Positions 1,458-63,964 of a stretch of DNA of 64,000 nt are shown here, one piece after another. A program made the position numbers and the translations under genes. The notes beneath the pieces are model-generated. The model was not told where the DNA came from. It ran no database searches and worked only from the letters and a program-made list of their open reading frames with translations. This stretch comes from a virus (Duplodnaviria; Caudoviricetes), in the IMG/VR virus record IMGVR_UViG_3300021426_000001; one strand, written 5' to 3'. Numbering within the stretch: position 1 is the stretch's first letter; every line of letters begins with the position of its first letter.

Positions 1458-1793
1458 TTACCTCCTAGCCTTGTCTGCTAGTCTGAGTTGTTCTTGTAAG
1501 AATGTCCTGAGCTCTACAGGTTCTATCTTCTTGATCATGATGTGTTTCGTTCCAGGAACCTTGACGGGCTGGAGTCGGATGTCCAGCACGTACATTCTGT
1601 ACTCAAGGAACCTCTGATCGAGAAGAAGATCCCAGCCGTGAACACCCTTCTCGTGCTTGAACCACGCATAGTTGTTAGTTCCGAAAGAGCAGGTCGTGAT
1701 TTCTCCACCTGGAACTTCAGTGAATGATGTTATTTGGTCTGGTCGGTCTTTGTAGAGTTCTTTAAGTATAGCTTTAGCTTCATCGTAGTTCAT
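1458..1793 (-). CDS. hypothetical protein
   Basis: 111 aa ORF, coupled junction. Confidence 0.75.
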   Translation of the reverse strand: MNYDEAKAILKELYKDRPDQITSFTEVPGGEITTCSFGTNNYAWFKHEKGVHGWDLLLDQRFLEYRMYVLDIRLQPVKVPGTKHIMIKKIEPVELRTFLQEQLRLADKARR

Positions 1794-2239
1794 TAGAAGT
1801 CTCCCTCTATCGAGTCGAAGAACATCTGTTCCAGTTCTGGTTTGTTCTTGTTGTTGAAAATCCAGTGAATGTCAAGCTCCTTGTCGAATACGCGATGCTT
1901 GTAGATTCCTGGCAAGTCTTCGTAGCACGATCCGTTCAGATTCTGCAAGTATCTCATTCCCGTGAGTCTGAATCTTCCCTCATAGAAGTCGACGATCGAG
2001 CGCAGAATGTACTCGTTAGAGCGAATCGTCATATTTCCCTCGTTGTCTTCAATAGCGCCCAAGTGAGGAACCGGCAAGCAGAGCAGCACGCTCTCCACGA
2101 CACGGCTCTTGAGATCGATGTATAGATCGTCGTACTGGTCCGAGAGAATTATCCTGCCCTCTTCTATTAGCTTCGGGATCCTGTAGATCGAGTACACGTC
2201 GTGCTTGTGCGATAGGATCATTTCAGATTTGTCAGCCAT
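1793..2239 (-). CDS. degenerate DUF262 (ParB/Srx-like) protein
   Basis: KSRVVESVLLCLPVP...EDNEG...FRLTGMRYLQNLNGSCYEDLP resembles DUF262; DGxQR motif replaced by RSNEY. Confidence 0.7.
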   Translation of the reverse strand: MADKSEMILSHKHDVYSIYRIPKLIEEGRIILSDQYDDLYIDLKSRVVESVLLCLPVPHLGAIEDNEGNMTIRSNEYILRSIVDFYEGRFRLTGMRYLQNLNGSCYEDLPGIYKHRVFDKELDIHWIFNNKNKPELEQMFFDSIEGDF

Positions 2240-2673
2240 TACTTCACCCTGTGCATGAGGTCGATCACGTCTTCCATGATCTTCTTGTTGTCTTCAGTTC
2301 CGTAGCGCAGCCAGAGATAGTGGACGTTGTACTCCATGATGCGGCGCTGAAATGGACGCTTGATCTCAGAGTACTTGAGACCCTGGATCCCGTCGATGTA
2401 CCCGCCAGTGATAGCGAACTTGTCTTCTACGAAGTCTGCGATAGTGTTGAAGATGTCGGCACCGTAGACGATCTCAGACTTGTTGTCCCTGAAGTGCTTC
2501 ATCTGAACGAAGCTGAGCTCCAAGAATCTCATCAGGACTGCTTCGATGATCTTAGACTTGTCTTCCACAGAGAGATGCGTAACTTCCTGACGGTTGTCCT
2601 GACGGTGACCGTAGTATTCTTGGAAAGTGGTGTTCTGCGGAGCGTAGTCGTATTGGTCGTAGTCGATCTTCAT
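2239..2673 (-). CDS. second degenerate DUF262-like protein
   Basis: KSKIIEAVLMR...EIVYGADIFNTIADF...GLKYSEIKRPFQRRI aligns with neighbour and DUF262 pattern; no DGxQR. Confidence 0.6.
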   Translation of the reverse strand: MKIDYDQYDYAPQNTTFQEYYGHRQDNRQEVTHLSVEDKSKIIEAVLMRFLELSFVQMKHFRDNKSEIVYGADIFNTIADFVEDKFAITGGYIDGIQGLKYSEIKRPFQRRIMEYNVHYLWLRYGTEDNKKIMEDVIDLMHRVK

Positions 2674-2853
2674 TTAGTGCCTCTTTATGCGAGTGTTAGT
2701 GATTGAGTTGTAGAGCGCGTATGCGTAGTGGAGCGACTCACGATAGGGCGACTCACGATAGGCATTGTAGTCCTTGACTGCCTGTTCGAGATGAGAGATA
2801 GCCTCGTTGAGTCCCAGAGTAGCTAGATAAGCTTCTTTGCTCGGATCTATCAC
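2674..2853 (-). CDS. small hypothetical protein (59 aa, GTG start)
   Basis: Manually translated; fills gap exactly between neighbours; contains 15-bp duplication. Confidence 0.55.
   Translation of the reverse strand: MIDPSKEAYLATLGLNEAISHLEQAVKDYNAYRESPYRESLHYAYALYNSITNTRIKRH
2733..2762. repeat. perfect 15-bp tandem duplication
   Basis: GCGACTCACGATAGG x2. Confidence 0.9.
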
Positions 2854-3197
2854 TTGGCAGCCTCCTTCTCTTCGACATCCATGCTGGCCTTGACGAGAGT
2901 GCCCTTAGCGAAAGCCTTAGCAGCTCGTTCAGCGTCGATCTCGAAGTGAGTCACTCGGTAGAGAGCGCTAGCGAAAACCTTTGCAGCGCACTTCTTGCAG
3001 AAGATCGGATTTTCGACAGCCTTGCCGTACGGGATGCAGAGATAGTCGAACTTCAGTCTCGCGTGGCTCACTTGATCCATGAAGTAAGCGATTGGCGGAT
3101 AGAGAGCGTCCCTGACTTCTTCGAGTTCTTCTTTTGTGATCTCTTCTTCGCACCAGTCGCAGACGATCTTGACGTTTTCGATTTTCTGAATTCCCAT
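2850..3197 (-). CDS. putative Zn-binding protein
   Basis: CDWC and CKKC pairs. Confidence 0.7.
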   Translation of the reverse strand: MGIQKIENVKIVCDWCEEEITKEELEEVRDALYPPIAYFMDQVSHARLKFDYLCIPYGKAVENPIFCKKCAAKVFASALYRVTHFEIDAERAAKAFAKGTLVKASMDVEEKEAAK

Positions 3198-3231
3198 GAT
3201 AGAGTCCCTTGTTGAATTGTTTTACACAGTC

Positions 3232-3268
3232 AATATAAGAAAATCAGGGCTTGTTGTAAACCCTGATT
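3232..3268 (-). promoter_or_regulatory. early promoter within stem-loop
   Basis: TTTACA-N17-TATATT; AATCAGGG/CCCTGATT arms flank the -35. Confidence 0.85.
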
Positions 3269-3297
3269 CTGAGATTTTCTTGATTTTTTCTTGACTG

Positions 3298-3972
3298 TTA
3301 GCCGAGATCTACCGGTAGGGACCAAGAGTTAGTTCCCTCTTGGAGCTTCTCGTTGAGGAAGTCTCTGGCGTCAGATGCCGCAGAGATGATGTTCTGCTTC
3401 TGGACTTCAGTGTCTGCCCTCTCGTCGATCTGGCACATGACCATCCAGCCCTCGTCTGTTTCCGTGAGGTGGCCGTTGCTGCTGTCGTTGTAGTCTGCGA
3501 TCTCGCTCTCGTCGAGCTGGAACTTCGGGCTGTTGAGCTTCACATGGACATAGATGTCTTCGCCGTCTCGACCAGCGCCAGCGCCAGTGATGAAGTCCGG
3601 ATGATCTTCGCGGAGAAGCTTTAGAACCTGATTTGCGACTTCTTCTGGAGTCACTACAGCTTCGTTAGTAGACTCGTTGATGAGCTTAGACTCGCCCTTT
3701 ATTTCGACAGACTCGTTCGACTGCTGAGCGATCTTGAGGATAGTCTCCTTGACGAGATCGAGAGCTTCCTTAGAAGCGCAGCACACAGTGAACCACTCGT
3801 TGACTGGCCAGAACTGGTAGATGTCTCCCTGGATGTCGTAGAGACCCATCGGATCTTCATCTGCGCTAGCGTTGATGAGCTGGTTGAATCGAGTGTTGAT
3901 GTCATTTGCGTCTTGAGCAGACGGAAGCTTGGCGAGAATAGAGCCATTAGAATTGTCGATAATCATTTCCAT
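3298..3972 (-). CDS. acidic late protein, possible virion internal protein
   Basis: 224 aa; TATAAATA at 3993-4000. Confidence 0.7.
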   Translation of the reverse strand: MEMIIDNSNGSILAKLPSAQDANDINTRFNQLINASADEDPMGLYDIQGDIYQFWPVNEWFTVCCASKEALDLVKETILKIAQQSNESVEIKGESKLINESTNEAVVTPEEVANQVLKLLREDHPDFITGAGAGRDGEDIYVHVKLNSPKFQLDESEIADYNDSSNGHLTETDEGWMVMCQIDERADTEVQKQNIISAASDARDFLNEKLQEGTNSWSLPVDLG

Positions 3973-3992
3973 GTTAGAAACTCCGGTTTGTT

Positions 3993-4000
3993 TATTTATA
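3993..4000 (-). promoter_or_regulatory. T4-type late promoter
   Basis: TATAAATA upstream of 3972 start. Confidence 0.7.
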
Positions 4001-4002
4001 CA

Positions 4003-4311
4003 TTAGTCGTTGTGGCGCCAGTCATGTTCTATGACTTCGGATCCAGTGCGGACAGCACGAAGTTCTTGGAAAGCGTATTGAGCCTGATCGCACCAGCCGA
4101 GCGGCCATTTGTCCATAGAGCCGTCAGAAGAGATGTTGATGCGCTGATCCTTCCAGAGGATGTAGTAGCCAGTAGCCTTTTCTTTAGCGATCTGGATCTG
4201 AACATCGTAGAGTTGGAGTTCGTTTTCGATAATGCCGACTAAGCCTTGAGCGCTGTGAAGAGTGCCATAGTCTTCTTGAGCAGTGATGTCGTGGTTGATG
4301 GTGATAGCCAT
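4003..4311 (-). CDS. stand-alone DUF3696-like protein
   Basis: RINISSDGSMDKWPLGWCDQ resembles the DUF3696 I-x-I-x-x-x-G-x-x-x-x-WPxGFFDQ motif. Confidence 0.6.
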   Translation of the reverse strand: MAITINHDITAQEDYGTLHSAQGLVGIIENELQLYDVQIQIAKEKATGYYILWKDQRINISSDGSMDKWPLGWCDQAQYAFQELRAVRTGSEVIEHDWRHND

Positions 4312-4341: not shown

Positions 4342-4380
4342 AATATAAGAAAATCAGGGCTAACTGTAAACCCTGATTTT
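4342..4380 (-). promoter_or_regulatory. early promoter within stem-loop
   Basis: TTTACA-N17-TATATT; AAAATCAGGG/CCCTGATTTT arms. Confidence 0.85.
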
Positions 4381-18364: not shown

Positions 18365-18403
18365 AATATAAGAAAATCAGGGCTCTTTGTAAACCCTGAT
18401 TTT
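18365..18403 (-). promoter_or_regulatory. early promoter within stem-loop
   Basis: Near-identical to the 3232 and 4342 cassettes. Confidence 0.85.
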
Positions 18404-25404: not shown

Positions 25405-25848
25405 TTAATTCTCTAATAATTTATTTCTAAATAATGTTGAACTATAATCGTGCTTTCTTTCATTATAATAAATTTCAATTCCTTCCAAATCCCAGCCCGT
25501 GTGTTTCGTTCCTTTATACTCTTCACCAACGAAACGAATATCAGGTTTGATTATTTTGAGCATATTTAGCAAATCACGTTCTGTATCAAACGGAATAATT
25601 AAATCAGCGTATTTAATAGATGTGATTTGAATCCAGCGTTCAAACGTCGTTTGACAAGGTTTATTTTTTTCATTTCTGTCATTTGTTGGGTCAGTCAATA
25701 AGCCTACAACCAAAAAATCACAATTTCGTTTTGCTTCAGCTAGCATAATATCATGGCCGCAATGGGGACCGAGTTCAAAAGTTGAACAAGTAAATCCTAT
25801 CTTCTTTCCTTCTTTTCTAGCTTGTTCAATCGTATCTAAACTGTCCAT
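25405..25848 (-). CDS. cytidylyltransferase (TagD/RfaE-like HxGH family)
   Basis: GFTCSTFELGPHCGH, LVVGL, GEEY, RKHDYSST. Confidence 0.85.
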   Translation of the reverse strand: MDSLDTIEQARKEGKKIGFTCSTFELGPHCGHDIMLAEAKRNCDFLVVGLLTDPTNDRNEKNKPCQTTFERWIQITSIKYADLIIPFDTERDLLNMLKIIKPDIRFVGEEYKGTKHTGWDLEGIEIYYNERKHDYSSTLFRNKLLEN

Positions 25849-26861
25849 AATTTAATCATTTCCTTAATTTCGTTTAATGTTCTTTGCTTTAATTCATCGG
25901 TGCTATATTTATAAATACGAATCCACTGTGTAAGTTCAGCGATATAGATTTGTTTTTTATAATTCTTGTAATAATTCAATACTACAGCATATTCGTCAGT
26001 TTTATTATATCGTTTCAGCGAATGAAGTAATTTGCCTATATCTAATAACCAAGACGAATATAATTTTTCACTATAAATTGGGTCTATTAAATACAGCTTA
26101 TCATTCATTTTTAGAACATTATCAAGTGAAAAGTCTCCATGACTAAAAGTAATATGCTCATCAAAAAACTTTTGCTCAATCTTCATAGCAGTTATGATAG
26201 ATTTCTTTTCATCCTCAGTTAATGGAATATTACTAAGATGTGAACTTATCCTATCAATATAAGTTTGAAATTGTGCTGCTGAAATAGATTTGATATACTG
26301 TTCTTTATCAAGTAACTCTATGATTTCAAAAATTGTTGGCTCGCTATCGCTTTTAATGTATTCCATAGCAATAGTGTTTCCTATTACACTATGAATTTTT
26401 GGAACATTGAAAAATTTTTTTGAAATTTCAAACCAAGCTATTACATCTTTTGTGTCGTCAGCAGTTTTATAAATTTTTCCATCACGAAGTTCTATTTTAG
26501 CCCCGCTCATACCAGTCTTAATAGTTTCAAATGATATGTCCATAAACTCGTCAGGTTTATATCCCTTATCATCAATATAATAAGAAGCAAGCTTCTTTTG
26601 AAAACTGAGTTCAGTATATTTCACACCGTGCTTCTTAAACCAGTTTCTTATACTTTCTCCATATTTTAGTTCTGCTTCTTCACGCGACGAACAACTTAAA
26701 CTTCCTCTCGCAGTAACATAATAAATGTCCCAGCCCTCATCGTATAACTTATTTAATTTTTCAATAAGTTTTAGATTGGGTTCAGCATTATCAAAATCAT
26801 GATTTAGCGTGAATGAAATACAATCATCAATGTCAACACATATACTGTTAGGATAAGCCAT
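25836..26861 (-). CDS. HAD phosphatase fused to APH-like kinase
   Basis: VDIDD, TARG, YIDDK; HGDFSLDN, LIDP. Confidence 0.85.
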   Translation of the reverse strand: MAYPNSICVDIDDCISFTLNHDFDNAEPNLKLIEKLNKLYDEGWDIYYVTARGSLSCSSREEAELKYGESIRNWFKKHGVKYTELSFQKKLASYYIDDKGYKPDEFMDISFETIKTGMSGAKIELRDGKIYKTADDTKDVIAWFEISKKFFNVPKIHSVIGNTIAMEYIKSDSEPTIFEIIELLDKEQYIKSISAAQFQTYIDRISSHLSNIPLTEDEKKSIITAMKIEQKFFDEHITFSHGDFSLDNVLKMNDKLYLIDPIYSEKLYSSWLLDIGKLLHSLKRYNKTDEYAVVLNYYKNYKKQIYIAELTQWIRIYKYSTDELKQRTLNEIKEMIKLWTV

Positions 26862-26866
26862 ACTTG

Positions 26867-27565
26867 TTATTCCAATGTATTTTTTGTTATCCTTCCGTTA
26901 TCCAAATAAGAATATACTGGAGGATTACATGTTATTAAATGATTTGATTGAACCCATAGTGTGAATAGTAATAATTCAGCTAAATGAGCTATACTTCTAT
27001 TTACAACAGTATATTTCGTCAAATCACATTTATTTAATAGCAAATCAAACAACCATTCACAATAGGAATTAAAAATTTTTCCTGTTGTTATAAACATATT
27101 GTGTCTATAATGCCAGTTATTATTTAAAATAGTTATAGCATCATTATACATATTAGGATAATGGGTGTGTATCACATCTAATATATCAAACAATTGAGTT
27201 TTTAAGCATCCACAGCATATACCATTATTTGACATAAAACGCTCAGCTAATGTGACTTGATACATACAATTAGAGTCAAATGTACTGCTATGAACTATAA
27301 TATCGTTGGATTTTAATTTTTCTTTTATATCGTTTTCGGATAATCTAAACGTTCTTTTTCTTTGTTCAAACCCAACTATATCTTCATCTTTTACTATATT
27401 TTTCCAACCATAATATAACCCAGTTAATTCACAAAAATATGGGTTATACTTATCAATATTATCTTTATCGTGTGTTATGTCGGAAAAATATGTTTCATGC
27501 ATAGGAGTCAATGGAATGTTTATCCCATGTGAATTTCCGGCTACTATTATTTTTATATTACTCAA
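26867..27565 (-). CDS. DUF4422 glycosyltransferase (divergent)
   Basis: DNIDKYNPYFCELTGLY, NMFI, YCEWLF. Confidence 0.8.
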   Translation of the reverse strand: MSNIKIIVAGNSHGINIPLTPMHETYFSDITHDKDNIDKYNPYFCELTGLYYGWKNIVKDEDIVGFEQRKRTFRLSENDIKEKLKSNDIIVHSSTFDSNCMYQVTLAERFMSNNGICCGCLKTQLFDILDVIHTHYPNMYNDAITILNNNWHYRHNMFITTGKIFNSYCEWLFDLLLNKCDLTKYTVVNRSIAHLAELLLFTLWVQSNHLITCNPPVYSYLDNGRITKNTLE

Positions 27566-27572
27566 AATATAC

Positions 27573-28223
27573 CTATCTAGTTATTTTCATACCAATAAAT
27601 TTGTTCTTTTTATTTTTCCAAATGAGCCAGGCACCAAAAAGAAATTCAGTAAAATAACCACAAATTCTACACGGAAGTTCCCTTCCAAAAGTTTTTTCAG
27701 CTAACCTATAGTTTTCAAGCACATCAAAAATAAATGAGCAATACTCATTTATAACTTCTTTCTTTGCTATAAACATATTACACATAATATGATAATCACC
27801 ATTTAGGAAATTAGTACATATATCATAATATTCTTGTCCGACATAATGTTTAGCAAAAATCAAGAATTTCTGTGTATCTAACCATTTGCCATTTCTAATA
27901 AGCCAAGTTTTAATAGGTTTCATAGTTGAATAACCTATAGAACGATTAGACAATATGTCATTATCTTTAAGGATCTCTTTAATCTCATTTTCAGAAAGTA
28001 AGTTTCCATTATCATTAACAAAATATCTTCTATAATGTTCAAGTCCGACAATATCATCATCAACATGCTTCCATAAATAGTAAAGCCCAGTGAGCTCACA
28101 GTACCACGGATTCAGAAAGTCAATGTTGTCGCCCTCATGCGGCTGATCAATCAAGAACTTCTCTCTGATGTTGTCTAATGGCAGAAAACGATTCCTGCTG
28201 CTTCCCACGACGTAAATCTTCAT
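27573..28223 (-). CDS. DUF4422 glycosyltransferase (galactofuranosyltransferase-like)
   Basis: GDNIDFLNPWYCELTGLY, GLEHYRRYF, NMFIAKK. Confidence 0.88.
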   Translation of the reverse strand: MKIYVVGSSRNRFLPLDNIREKFLIDQPHEGDNIDFLNPWYCELTGLYYLWKHVDDDIVGLEHYRRYFVNDNGNLLSENEIKEILKDNDILSNRSIGYSTMKPIKTWLIRNGKWLDTQKFLIFAKHYVGQEYYDICTNFLNGDYHIMCNMFIAKKEVINEYCSFIFDVLENYRLAEKTFGRELPCRICGYFTEFLFGAWLIWKNKKNKFIGMKITR

Positions 28224-49039: not shown

Positions 49040-50338
49040 TTAGATAGAGTAGTTCGGGTTCTTCACTTTGAATGACACGTTGTAGTCGTCTCTGAGACGG
49101 AGAACGAAGCCCTCACGCTTGTGAGACAAGTTCTTTCCGAAGCAGGTGTTCTTGTCGGACTGCTGGAGCATGATGTCCACGCCAGTGACCTTGACGCCCT
49201 TGTCGTTGATCATCTCGCCAGGCAGCTTGTAGTGCTCGTCGAGAACTGGAACGAACTTCAGATCGTGCTCAGCAGCGAACTTGACAGACTGCTCGTAGTT
49301 GAGCTTGTTCCATCTGACCTTCCACTTCTTGCCGTTCGTGGTGTCGAGGTACTTCTCCTTCCAGTAGAAGTCGAAGAAGATTACATCCGTCTCGTCCAGC
49401 TTGTATATGTTCCCCTGGATGCCCGGACCCACGTGCTCGCCACGGCAGAACCACTCGCCCGGAATAGCCTCGATCTTCTTGTCTAGACCGAGTCTCTTCA
49501 CAGTGTCCCAGAAGTTCTTGCCAGTCCCCTTCGGGTTGAGCTCACGGGTGCGAGAGCAGACGCCGACGTGCTTCTTCTTGCGTCCGAAGATCCCTTTCTT
49601 CTTCATCTCTGTGAAGATGGTGATGTTCTGACCCTCGAGCTTCTCGGTAGCTACCCACTCTCTGTCCTTGTACTGCTCGTACATTCTCGTGTAGAGCTTC
49701 TGGACGTTCTCTTCGTCAGACTTGCCAGGGTGAGTCGGATCCCATGTTTCTGAGATGTGACGAGACTTTCTGAGGTTTCTGAACCACTTGAATCTCATCA
49801 GGAATCGGAGAATGAAGCCGTCTCTCGAGGTGTCAAGCTTCTGAGCTGCGAGACCAGCCTCCTCTTCGTCCTCGACCATCTCCCTTATCTCGAACTGAGC
49901 AGTGAAGTCCTGACCGAGCTTATACTTAGTCAGACCGACGTCCTCGGGCTTGAATAGAATGCCCTGAGAGATAACGCCGAACTTGCTTAGCTTCATAGAC
50001 TTGATCTTGAACTTCTTTCCGCGCAAGAACTCGAAGTACGGGTACTTGTGCATGTCCATAATCGTCTTGACAGCAGCGTGGATAGACTCCTCAGACCAAG
50101 AAGCATATTCGCCGTCGTGCTGAGAGAGCTTGACGAGCTTGTCTGCTAGATCTGGAGTCAGTCCGTCAGGCAGAACAGAGTCTACCTCGACATAGAGACC
50201 GAGATCTCCAGGCTTGAACTCGTTCTTCTTCACGACTACAGTGTAGTCCATGACGGATGCGAGTTCGATTCTGTCGGCGCCAGGAATCTCCCTGATCTCG
50301 CCGATCTTTACGATGTAAGCTAATGGCTTTCCATACAT
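49040..50338 (-). CDS. RNA ligase, Rnl2/DRB0094 type with N-terminal OB-like domain
   Basis: IPGADRIELA; TEKLEG; RGEHVGPGIQGNIY; FFDF; REGFV; SFKVKN. Confidence 0.9.
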   Translation of the reverse strand: MYGKPLAYIVKIGEIREIPGADRIELASVMDYTVVVKKNEFKPGDLGLYVEVDSVLPDGLTPDLADKLVKLSQHDGEYASWSEESIHAAVKTIMDMHKYPYFEFLRGKKFKIKSMKLSKFGVISQGILFKPEDVGLTKYKLGQDFTAQFEIREMVEDEEEAGLAAQKLDTSRDGFILRFLMRFKWFRNLRKSRHISETWDPTHPGKSDEENVQKLYTRMYEQYKDREWVATEKLEGQNITIFTEMKKKGIFGRKKKHVGVCSRTRELNPKGTGKNFWDTVKRLGLDKKIEAIPGEWFCRGEHVGPGIQGNIYKLDETDVIFFDFYWKEKYLDTTNGKKWKVRWNKLNYEQSVKFAAEHDLKFVPVLDEHYKLPGEMINDKGVKVTGVDIMLQQSDKNTCFGKNLSHKREGFVLRLRDDYNVSFKVKNPNYSI

Positions 50339-61171: not shown

Positions 61172-62671
61172 TTACTTGATCTGCTCATAGCGAGCAGAGA
61201 GAAGCACATCCTTCAATACCTCGAACGGATCGAACTTGTTGGACATAGCCATCTTCAAGATGTTCTGGCTGAAGCCCGAGAGCAGCTTGAGACCTTGGTC
61301 GTTCTGCTGCAGCGGCATAGCGTTCGTTCTGGAGTTGACGTTCCAGAAGAGCAAGCCAGGCATCTTGTAGCCCTTAGCCTTGAACTTTCCAGCGATCGTC
61401 TCGAAGAGAGTCTTCCAGCGATCCTTAGAGCGGTCGTACTTGAGGGTCGTTGCGCCGTTGAACTCCATGTCGGAGATGATCAAGACGTCCGGGATGTCCT
61501 CCTGCTTCATCTTGTTGTCGACGGCAGTTCTGAGGATCAAGTTCATTGTAGCCTCGATGTTCGTAGAGCCGCATGAGTCCTCCTTGAATGTTCTCACGAG
61601 CTTGTCGTGGAGAGACATCTGGTCGCTGAGCTTGATGAGAGTCGGATGATCATCGAAGGTGATGAAGGTGTTCTTGAATCCACCAACGTTTCTCTCAGCG
61701 CAGTAGATTGCGAGAGCCGTAGCCACGTCCTCTGCCTGAATGTTGGAGTTCGGGATCGTAACGTCCATAGAGCCAGAGCCGTCGCGGACGACGATGAGAG
61801 GCTTAGACATGTCGATCTTCGGCAAGTTCTTCCACATACCCTCGAGAGCTGCGTCATACGGCTTTGCGGTCGGATTCCAGCCGCTCACAGTCTTGTAAGC
61901 GTGGACGATGTCGTGCGGGAACGCGACAGCGGAGTTGATCTTGACCTCGCCCTTGTCCAGAGCGTTCAAGAACTCGCGGCGGCGTGCCTCGTCGTGCTTG
62001 AGGAAGGAGTCCTTGTACTTCAGGTTGGCCTTAGACGGCACAGTCTGGTAGTTGATCTCGTCCCACTTGTTAGCACAGAGCTTGACCTCGATGACGTTCG
62101 AGTAAGCGCGAAGCTTAGAGAGTGTCTTGCGGTACTGAGCCGGGTGCATGCCGAGAGCCTTGCAGAGCAGGTGAGCCTTTGCGACAGTCTCCTTAGAGGA
62201 GGTGTTCACAGACGGCAGCCACTTGCCGAGCAGAGAGATCGGCTTGTTATCCTTGAGCGCCTTCAAGTCAGTGTCGAGCTGAGTCTTGATGAGAGCGATA
62301 GCGTCATCTTCTGCTGTAGTGCCGAAGAGCTCTGTCACGATGTCCCAGCGAGAGTACTCGGGAATGAGCTTGATGAGGTGCTTGTACTTCGGAAGAACGT
62401 TCTTCACGAGGATCTTGAAGAGACGGCGCTCGCCGAGACCCTGACGAACGTCGCCAGCGTAGAACATCCACTTCAGGGCGAGGACCGGATCCTCTGCGAA
62501 AGCTGCCAAGAAGTCCGAAAGAATTGTCTCCTCAGTAGCGCCACGGTAAGACGGAACCTTGAAGTTCATATCCACGAGAGCGTTGCCAGAAGTAGCGAAC
62601 GAGACTGCACCGTTCTCGGTACGAGTCGTGCGCTTGTTGAGAATTTTCTCCATTTGAGAGTAGAATGACAT
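61172..62671 (-). CDS. DUF2828 family protein (TROVE/Ro60-like helical domain plus vWA)
   Basis: TENGA, GDVRQGLGER, KWLPS, DGSGSM MIDAS, STN, ISDMEF, FWNV, LSGFS; start MSFYSQ with AAGGA RBS. Confidence 0.85.
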   Translation of the reverse strand: MSFYSQMEKILNKRTTRTENGAVSFATSGNALVDMNFKVPSYRGATEETILSDFLAAFAEDPVLALKWMFYAGDVRQGLGERRLFKILVKNVLPKYKHLIKLIPEYSRWDIVTELFGTTAEDDAIALIKTQLDTDLKALKDNKPISLLGKWLPSVNTSSKETVAKAHLLCKALGMHPAQYRKTLSKLRAYSNVIEVKLCANKWDEINYQTVPSKANLKYKDSFLKHDEARRREFLNALDKGEVKINSAVAFPHDIVHAYKTVSGWNPTAKPYDAALEGMWKNLPKIDMSKPLIVVRDGSGSMDVTIPNSNIQAEDVATALAIYCAERNVGGFKNTFITFDDHPTLIKLSDQMSLHDKLVRTFKEDSCGSTNIEATMNLILRTAVDNKMKQEDIPDVLIISDMEFNGATTLKYDRSKDRWKTLFETIAGKFKAKGYKMPGLLFWNVNSRTNAMPLQQNDQGLKLLSGFSQNILKMAMSNKFDPFEVLKDVLLSARYEQIK

Positions 62672-62702
62672 TTTGAAGTTTTCCTTCGGTTCAAAGTTGA
62701 TC

Positions 62703-62756
62703 AAGATGGAATTTTGATTGTGCGAACCAAGCATATCAAATTGCTGTTACCATCTT
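62703..62756 (-). ncRNA. bulged stem-loop in 5' leader of DUF2828 gene (Y-RNA-like candidate)
   Basis: AAGATGG-TAACAGC-AATTTGAT-ATGC-TTGGTTC-GCAC-A-ATCAAAATT-CCATCTT. Confidence 0.5.
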
Positions 62757-62827: not shown

Positions 62828-63964
62828 TTACAAATCATCATCTTCATCATTGAACTTCGTCTTTAGCTCGTCTACGACATGACGGAAGATCTTCTCGTTG
62901 ACGGACTTGCCGCAAGCGACTTGGATAGCCATGTTGCCTACGAACTTTCCGCCGAGAGAGATAGCCTGCTCGTAGCGCTCACGACCAGTCAGACCAGAGA
63001 TCTGGTAGACGACCGTAGAGATCTGAGCGAGCAGAGAGCGGCATCCCTCGTCGAGGTTCTCAGCGTAGTACTTCATCTGCGGGAGCTCTTCCGGAATAGC
63101 AGCCTTGTACTCCGGATCGACCTTGAGAGTCTTTACGTCGAAGTGCAAGCGGATGTCCTTCTTAGTGATCCCAGAGATCATGTGGAACTTAGAGAGGTAT
63201 TCCAAGCCCTTGACCTTTACCTTGAAGCCAGAGTCGAAAGTGACTACGAAGCCCTCGTGATCCACGTCAAGCGCTCTCGCGTACTTGACCATCTCCTGGT
63301 AAGTCTTGAACTCCTTCATGGTAGAATAGCGGACTCCGATGCGGCCAGCGATCTCTATGATGTCGATCATCTCAGACTCTTCATGATTCTCGTCGAGAGC
63401 GCCCAATAGAACCAGACCCTCGTAGTTGTAGTGACATACGTGCTGATCTTCCCTAGAGACGATCTCGAAGCAGTAAGTCCAGCCGTAGTCCAAGTAGCGG
63501 TCGCAGATTTCCTGCCCTACGCACTTGTCAAGCCACTTCTGAGCCCACTTAGCCTGATCAGAGGTGAATGAGCCGCCAGTCTTGATGATCCACTTGCCGT
63601 CGTAGTAGAATAAGATGCCGAGCGAGCCGTCGATCTTGTCCATAGCTCTGAAGAATCTCGTCATCTTCGGCTCGAAGCCGTGACCGAGCTTCTGAAGGAT
63701 CTTTCCGACTTCAGCGAGCTGACCGTCTTCTGTCCAGATCTCTTCAGTGTTGAAGAACTTGTTGAACGGCCAAGCGACGATGTCGCCAGTAGCCTTGTCG
63801 AACACGATGCCACGGCAGCAGAGAGTGATCTCGTCCCACGCGTGGTCATAGACAGTCTGTAGAGAGTACTTGAAGCCGATGAGCTTGCCGTCTTCGGACT
63901 CGTGTGAGTTTAGCCAGCCGAGCTTTTCATATTCTAAGCACTTTTCAAGAGTTAAGCAGTTCAT
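62828..63964 (-). CDS. RNA ligase 1 (T4 RnlA-like)
   Basis: CRGIVF, PFNKFFN, DKIDGSLG, CFEI, EGFVV, KVKVK. Confidence 0.9.
   Translation of the reverse strand: MNCLTLEKCLEYEKLGWLNSHESEDGKLIGFKYSLQTVYDHAWDEITLCCRGIVFDKATGDIVAWPFNKFFNTEEIWTEDGQLAEVGKILQKLGHGFEPKMTRFFRAMDKIDGSLGILFYYDGKWIIKTGGSFTSDQAKWAQKWLDKCVGQEICDRYLDYGWTYCFEIVSREDQHVCHYNYEGLVLLGALDENHEESEMIDIIEIAGRIGVRYSTMKEFKTYQEMVKYARALDVDHEGFVVTFDSGFKVKVKGLEYLSKFHMISGITKKDIRLHFDVKTLKVDPEYKAAIPEELPQMKYYAENLDEGCRSLLAQISTVVYQISGLTGRERYEQAISLGGKFVGNMAIQVACGKSVNEKIFRHVVDELKTKFNDEDDDL

Follow-up and report, generated by a model that had tools for sequence, protein, structure and literature searches.

We examined three small genes, here called P1, P2, and P3, near the start of a 64,000-nucleotide stretch of viral DNA (IMG/VR record IMGVR_UViG_3300021426_000001; "the window" denotes this whole stretch). 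The window belongs to the genome of an uncultured, T4-like jumbo phage (Duplodnaviria; Caudoviricetes) of rumen origin, and contigs of 257 to 262 kb from sheep and cattle rumen metagenomes carry the same genes. An earlier note on this DNA had suggested that the three genes encode inactive mimics of two subunits of the Menshen antiphage system, a DUF262 protein (NsnA) and an ATPase with a DUF3696 tail (NsnB). All three open reading frames are present on the minus strand, as follows (lengths in amino acids [aa]).

1793-2239, minus strand: P1, 148 aa, a stand-alone ParB-DUF262 domain of the NsnA type (PADLOC match, NsnA)
2239-2673, minus strand: P2, 144 aa, a paralog of P1 (PADLOC match, NsnA)
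4003-4311, minus strand: P3, 102 aa, a stand-alone NsnB C-terminal module (approximately the H-loop strand, a helix, a beta-hairpin, the WP-loop, and the DUF3696 helix)

Among the 5027 models of PADLOC, NsnA was the sole match of both P1 (E value, 9.4e-16) and P2 (E value, 1.3e-12), at profile positions 47 to 181 of 385. The models for GmrSD, BrxU, SspE, and PD-T4-2_A were unmatched by either protein at E values up to 1. P1 and P2 are paralogs (26% identity; E value, 1e-8). They also align individually with P0040, an operon-encoded NsnA, to which P1 is 33% identical over 132 aa (E value, 2e-18) and which P2 matches with an E value of 1e-6. A KSxxIES helix and the segment F-x-L-x-G-x-x-Y-L-x-x-L-N-G, which follows the second DUF262 motif, are common to P1, P2, and NsnA. 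The earlier note had proposed checking the domains with the Pfam profiles PF03235 and PF12476. At E values up to 1, neither P1 nor P2 matched PF03235 (DUF262/GmrSD_N) or any other Pfam family; their full-length relatives do match PF03235. In PHROGs, the two proteins belong to the unannotated families phrog_2598 and phrog_1583, and a sequence search of the PDB with a P1/P2 profile returned nothing relevant.

Predicted structures were made for P1 and P3 only. The AlphaFold2 model of P1 has a predicted local distance difference test (pLDDT) score of 94.4. In a wide VIA-align search, its best solved match was the DUF262 domain of BrxU (PDB 7P9K; Z score of 8.2 over 134 aa; root mean square deviation, 3.3), with SspE second (PDB 6JIV; Z score of 6.5 over 133 aa), followed by sulfiredoxin, PadC, and ParB proteins. 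Sequence identity of P1 to the BrxU and SspE structures is 8 to 10%. Foldseek returned weak ParB/Noc rows alone from the PDB (E value, about 0.07), and in BFVD, the model matched viral DUF262 proteins (E values down to 4.6e-10). Judged from these profile matches and the P1 model, the fold of P1 and P2 is ParB/sulfiredoxin-like, of the DUF262 type. The description of two adjacent genes of about 145 aa with a DUF262 pattern is therefore upheld by the NsnA matches, the pairwise homology to NsnA, and the fold of P1.

DUF262 proteins carry three motifs, namely QRxxxW, DGxQR (the nucleotide-binding center), and FxxxN (PMC12065111). In P1, the region of motif I reads Y-D-D-L-Y plus a three-residue gap where P0040 has Y-Q-R-K-F-V-W, so that QR is changed to DD and "xxxW" is deleted. 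The residues S74-N75-E76-Y77-I78 are aligned to the D-G-Q-Q-R of motif II, and motif III reads F-D-S-I-E instead of F-E-R-I-N, with the Asn replaced. P1 terminates 3 residues past motif III and has no ParBDB domain; the end of P2 is similar. In P2, Y-G-A-D-I is aligned to D-G-Q-Q-R, and the region of motif I is not alignable. Replacement of DGxQR, as claimed earlier, was thus found in both proteins and the reading YGADI for P2 was correct, but the reading RSNEY for P1 was one residue out of register (the aligned residues are SNEYI). The surrounding sequence TIRSNEYILRS is unchanged in 11 P1 orthologs of 70 to 97% identity, and by these alignments, the loss of the DGxQR motif is fixed in the P1 family. 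Because of the profile, alignment, and fold results, we describe P1 and P2 as a ParB-DUF262 fold without the nucleotide-binding residues and without the ParBDB domain of NsnA. They share the ParB-DUF262 domain with NsnA but have one-third of its length, lack its N-terminal sensor domain, and come from a phage in which neither an intact nsnB nor an intact nsnC adjoins their genes. Across the 64-kb window, P1, P2, and P3 were the only matches to the NsnA and NsnB profiles, and no full NsnB/NsnC operon was found. P1 likewise has the same DUF262 fold as BrxU/GmrSD and SspE but not their DUF1524/HNH nuclease domain or nucleoside triphosphate-binding motifs.

P3 corresponds to the end of NsnB. Its own match to the PADLOC NsnB model is weak (E value, 0.002; profile positions 288 to 342 of 345), and NsnB is matched by all 15 members of the P3 family (best E value, 3.7e-6). 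The second Pfam profile proposed earlier, PF12476 (DUF3696), gave the result that PF03235 had not, with matches in 9 of the 15 members (best E value, 3.9e-6) and P3 itself below threshold; one P3 relative has a precomputed PF12476 label. The family also includes four members with a weak match to PDC-M55A. When P3 was compared with 80 NsnB C termini by hhalign, P3 residues 41 to 89 were aligned with a probability of 92% (E value, 6e-7). The P3 residues S-D-G-S-M-D-K-W-P-L-G-W-C-D-Q fall on the NsnB signature G-R-L-D-x-W-P-x-G-F-F-D-Q, and the alignment suggests that I-I-E-N-E-L is the H-loop strand V-I-x-E-T-H-S after loss of its His (ETHS to ENEL). Overall, P3 matches the last 55 to 80 or so residues of NsnB, including the signature (G-x-x-D-x-W-P-x-G-F-F-D-Q) and the terminal helix. 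It differs from NsnB in lacking the ATPase core (Walker A, Q-loop, signature motif, and Walker B), the alignment beginning at or after the position of Walker B, and in having about 20 N-terminal residues of its own and a conserved C-terminal D-W-R-H-N-D end. The profile, hhalign, and alignment results bear out the claim of a 102-aa DUF3696-like protein without Walker A or B.

The P3 model has a pLDDT score of 82. Compared with solved structures, it matched no chain at a Z score of 5 (best, 4.5), yet 7 of the 10 shape matches listed for the ESM Atlas were AAA_15/AAA_21/DUF3696 ATPases or DUF3696 proteins, aligned over residues 19 to 86 or so with template modeling scores (by query) of 0.44 to 0.49. 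A feature search of the ESM Atlas gave unnamed viral clusters alone, with scores below 0.8. From the profile, pairwise, and fold evidence, we consider it highly probable that P1, P2, and P3 are homologous to the two Menshen subunits and have lost their motifs.

To place P1 and P2 among their relatives, a joint profile of the two families was scored on 1.84 billion representative proteins, which gave 1774 matches at E values up to 0.001. Among the best 150 of these matches, 92 were long, and DG.QR was kept in 84 of the 92; a further 54 were of 200 aa or less, with DG.QR kept in 20 and present nowhere in the other 34. The 50 best long matches all fit the NsnA model (best E value, 5.9e-142), and 47 of them also fit PD-T4-2_A. 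Genomic context was checked for three long matches. The two best (P0040 and P0043) lie in NsnA-NsnB-NsnC operons consisting of a DUF262 protein, an AAA_15/AAA_21/DUF3696 ATPase, and a protein of about 310 aa, which is canonical Menshen; the third belongs to a DUF262 and HEPN pair. Of 80 Menshen loci taken from bacterial genomes, 72 have a gene immediately upstream of NsnB that is matched by the P1/P2 profile, and 69 of these 72 genes keep DG.QR.

Searches of cultured phages and deposited genomes gave little. The sole tblastn match of P1 among cultured phages was a full-length DUF262 gene in Ralstonia phage YO101_3 (part of a DUF262 and HEPN pair), P3 had none, and neither the P1-P3 region nor 24 kb of the window had a match to cultured phages at the DNA level. 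A comparison with 50,697 deposited phage records gave no close relative of the window phage. Pattern scans turned up no near relative of P1 or P3 in 185,579 species genomes, and P1/P2 patterns had no match in IMG/VR. In a quick tree, five short representatives without the motif cluster with the P1 family (support of 99), and three cluster with the P2 family (support of 88). The tree includes 34 cluster representatives of up to 200 aa, and in 24 of them, the aligned domain lacks DG.[QH]R. The broad family of short DUF262-like phage proteins without the catalytic motif uncovered in this way may be a general source of inhibitors. The same tree contains three metagenomic proteins of 340 to 345 aa (P0055, P0068, and P0084) that have also lost DGxQR, reading SGAEF, SGFEV, and SGIDI. 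None of them has a Pfam match, and they are placed, with weak support, as sister to the P1 clade.

All three genes are under purifying selection. Pairwise ratios of nonsynonymous to synonymous substitution rates (dN/dS) between the window and diverged relatives were 0.10 to 0.25 (unsaturated pairs; dS of 0.3 to 1.2). Contigs from RNA libraries of four rumen/gut studies partially cover P1, P2, and P3, which we take as weak support for expression because DNA carryover is possible. The start codon of P1 overlaps the stop codon of P2 (TAATG), Shine-Dalgarno (SD)-like sequences stand upstream of P1 (AGGGTGAAG) and of the P2 start codon (AAGAGG), and the starts of both P2 and P1 abut or overlap the preceding stop codons.

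The arrangement of the genes varies between phages, as follows.

Window phage: P3, 224 aa, promoter, 115 aa, 59 aa, P2, P1
L015 (257 kb; P1 71% identical): P3, 54 aa, P1, with no P2
L016 and L017: 115 aa, P2, P1, with no P3 within 4.5 kb
L014 (a more distant T4-like IMG/VR phage; P3 46% identical): P2-like, 87 aa, P3-like
L013 (sister of L014): P3-like alone, the corresponding position lacking a three-gene cassette

Three diverged phage lineages thus show linkage of a DUF262-like gene to a DUF3696-like gene. The repeated adjacency, together with independent gain and loss, fits the pattern expected of accessory counterdefense genes that act separately. The difference between L014 (9035-9922) and L013 (9913-10000) is a clean cassette of a 57-aa gene, the 145-aa P2-like gene, and the 87-aa gene, inserted between a gene for a 298-aa terminase-like fragment and the P3-like gene.

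P3 was also said to stand directly behind an early promoter, and this holds at the level of a consensus. The sequence GTTTACA-N17-TATATT occurs at 20 sites in the window (431-62805), all on the minus strand, where 0.04 would be expected by chance. It resembles the early-promoter type of T4. The sites relevant here are the following.

4342-4371, minus strand: early-promoter consensus, 30 bases upstream of the P3 start codon and inside a hairpin (4350-4380)
3232-3261, minus strand: second early-promoter consensus, heading a unit of 115 aa, 59 aa, P2, P1, 111 aa, 168 aa, and 160 aa
431-460 and 18365-18394, minus strand: other examples of the consensus

A terminator-like inverted repeat (AATCAGGG...CCCTGATT) was called around the consensus at both 3240-3270 and 4350-4380, its loop holding the -35 hexamer. 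The same arm, CCCTGATTTT, is present at the site at 18365.

The reading that we favor, with a probability of roughly 0.45, is that P1, P2, and P3 are functional phage proteins derived from two subunits of a Menshen-type system, reduced to single modules without enzymatic motifs, and that they act as anti-Menshen decoys. Their binding to host Menshen proteins and their inhibition of defense are putative. The hallmark of subunit mimicry, a homolog of a defense subunit that lacks catalysis and is expressed early, was found in P1 to P3, early expression being read from the promoter consensus and the RNA-library contigs. Menshen is present in at least 27 bacterial phyla, and in AlphaFold 3 predictions, the N-terminal, inactive PIN domain of NsnC is held between two DUF3696 tails of an NsnB tetramer (23 of 24 systems; PMC12065111). 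A decoy role is plausibly consistent with these published predictions, in which the DUF3696 tail holds NsnC. A single complex prediction, of P3 with the N-terminal domain of a stand-in NsnC from an Undibacterium-type Menshen locus, scored 0.00 without controls and counts neither for nor against binding. The most likely mode of action would be competitive, dominant-negative interference. P3 would occupy the surface of the NsnC PIN domain that docks between the two NsnB tails, and the P3-bound effector would be uncoupled from activation or kept inactive. P1 and P2 would occupy whatever the ParB domain of NsnA contacts, be it NsnB or another NsnA, and since they would be unable to bind nucleotide or DNA, signaling is proposed to be blocked. 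That the phage thereby carries a two-pronged set against one immune system, with dead copies of the sensor's ParB-DUF262 domain (the two paralogs) and the effector-holding tail of the transducer, is possible rather than probable.

Several observations weigh against the decoy reading. P1, P2, and P3 each occur without the others in relatives, and no DUF3696-like gene was found near the short DUF262 genes of three phage-like contigs (L099, L104, and L105). In the tree, the short motif-less DUF262 forms lie mostly outside the well-supported cellular NsnA clade and therefore represent an old, diverged phage family rather than a recent capture. No contact of NsnA with NsnB, NsnC, or another NsnA was predicted in the published study (PMC12065111). 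DUF262 and DUF3696 thus belong to the same system, as claimed in the earlier note, but contact between them is not established, because the study predicts that the DUF3696 tail contacts NsnC and predicts no contact for NsnA. Finally, two-gene DUF262 and HEPN systems fall in the same NsnA-type DUF262 clade, and DUF3696 tails also occur in ATPase-effector pairs without NsnA (PDC-M55A), so the target may extend beyond canonical Menshen or be another system. The earlier interpretation as a whole is partly supported, namely in homology to both subunits, motif loss, conservation, selection, and placement behind an early promoter.

P1 to P3 could instead serve the phage's own biology, with the likeness to Menshen reflecting the shared ancestry of widespread folds. 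P1 and P2 might be nucleotide-independent ParB-fold adaptors or regulators, for example, and P3 a small structural or regulatory protein. Phages commonly encode proteins of the ParB/sulfiredoxin fold, many viral records contain short DUF262-like proteins, and the short family is old and diverse, as the numbers of motif-less forms among the short matches and tree representatives show. We nevertheless consider this explanation somewhat improbable. It does not account for fragments of two subunits of one system lying together and being linked in diverged phages, for the accessory-like presence and absence between sister phages, or for the fact that the conserved parts are exactly the noncatalytic modules.

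Improbable, too, is that the three proteins inhibit defense systems that share these domains and not canonical Menshen. P1 and P2 would then antagonize DUF262 proteins generally (GmrSD/BrxU type IV restriction enzymes, SspE, or DUF262 and HEPN pairs), and P3 would be an independent antagonist of DUF3696 ATPase-effector modules without NsnA. Restriction enzymes of the GmrSD/BrxU type attack modified T4-like DNA. BrxU and SspE are the best solved structural matches of P1, most of the best long matches fit PD-T4-2_A as well as NsnA, the DUF262 and HEPN pairs share the clade, and the independence of the genes and the weak PDC-M55A matches of P3 relatives would also be accommodated. Set against this are the profile matches of P1 and P2, which are to NsnA alone, and the linkage in three lineages of DUF262-like and DUF3696-like genes, the domain pair that defines Menshen. 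The idea that P1 to P3 are decaying remnants of a once phage-borne Menshen system, for which it can be said that full-length DUF262 defense genes of phrog_2598 and phrog_1583 are carried by phages and prophages, is very improbable, and we rejected it on the dN/dS values and conservation. The reading frames are uninterrupted and have SD sequences of their own as well as translational coupling, the lengths are preserved in phages with as little as 46% identity, the replaced motifs do not vary, there are two paralogs, and the gene order is unlike nsnA-nsnB.

The nearest parallel to the decoy reading is AcrIB4, a proposed replacement for Cas11 (bioRxiv 10.1101/2025.06.06.658234). Both cases involve small, noncatalytic viral homologs of a subunit of a defense complex, with subunit replacement as the proposed action. 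They differ in that the target of P1 to P3 would be Menshen, that two different subunits are mimicked, and that the inhibitory function of P1 to P3 is putative. Full-text literature searches found no anti-Menshen protein, and a 2025 compendium of 268 antidefense proteins describes subunit replacement for an anti-CRISPR protein and does not mention Menshen. Within the literature searched, P1 to P3 are plausibly the first candidate phage inhibitors of this system. If they prove to be so, they would be the first anti-Menshen proteins and would extend subunit-mimic counterdefense from CRISPR to ATPase-toxin systems, and the short motif-less DUF262 proteins of phages would constitute a large, unrecognized counterdefense class. 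They would also mark the interaction surfaces of NsnA and NsnB and so give a handle on signaling from NsnA to NsnB and NsnC. The Menshen mechanism is known from predictions alone, and natural single-module fragments that have been kept by selection would be ready-made probes of communication between its subunits.

In the first 8 kb of the window, nearly every gene is on the minus strand, and the genes are tightly packed. The immediate neighbors of P1 to P3 include the following.

3298-3972, minus strand: a 224-aa acidic protein of no recognized family, following P3 with no promoter consensus between them; absent from L015
2674-3197, minus strand: two small genes (115 aa and 59 aa) between the promoter at 3232-3261 and P2, with no family match

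PADLOC models had no match in the ten genes neighboring P1 to P3. In three relatives, a gene of about 315 aa with the precomputed Pfam label "Gad2 (weak)" lies 0.3 to 2.6 kb downstream of P1-like genes (L016, 7573-8529; L017, 7441-8406; L099, 1906-2850). Gad2 is an anti-Gabija protein, so the label would hint at a cluster of antidefense genes; it was not reproduced by a Pfam scan of these genes. The window also contains RNA-repair-like genes (1-159, 49040-50338, 61172-62734, and 62828-63964), a set comprising an enzyme of the CCA-adding/poly(A) polymerase family, two RNA ligases, and a DUF2828 gene (PHROG annotation, "RNA-binding protein"). In L104, a DUF2828 relative lies near another short DUF262-like gene. 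Lastly, a low-GC island at positions 26001 to 28000 of the window (GC content of 0.29, compared to about 0.48 elsewhere) spans three minus-strand genes (25836-26861, 26867-27565, and 27573-28223) and may be recently acquired DNA.

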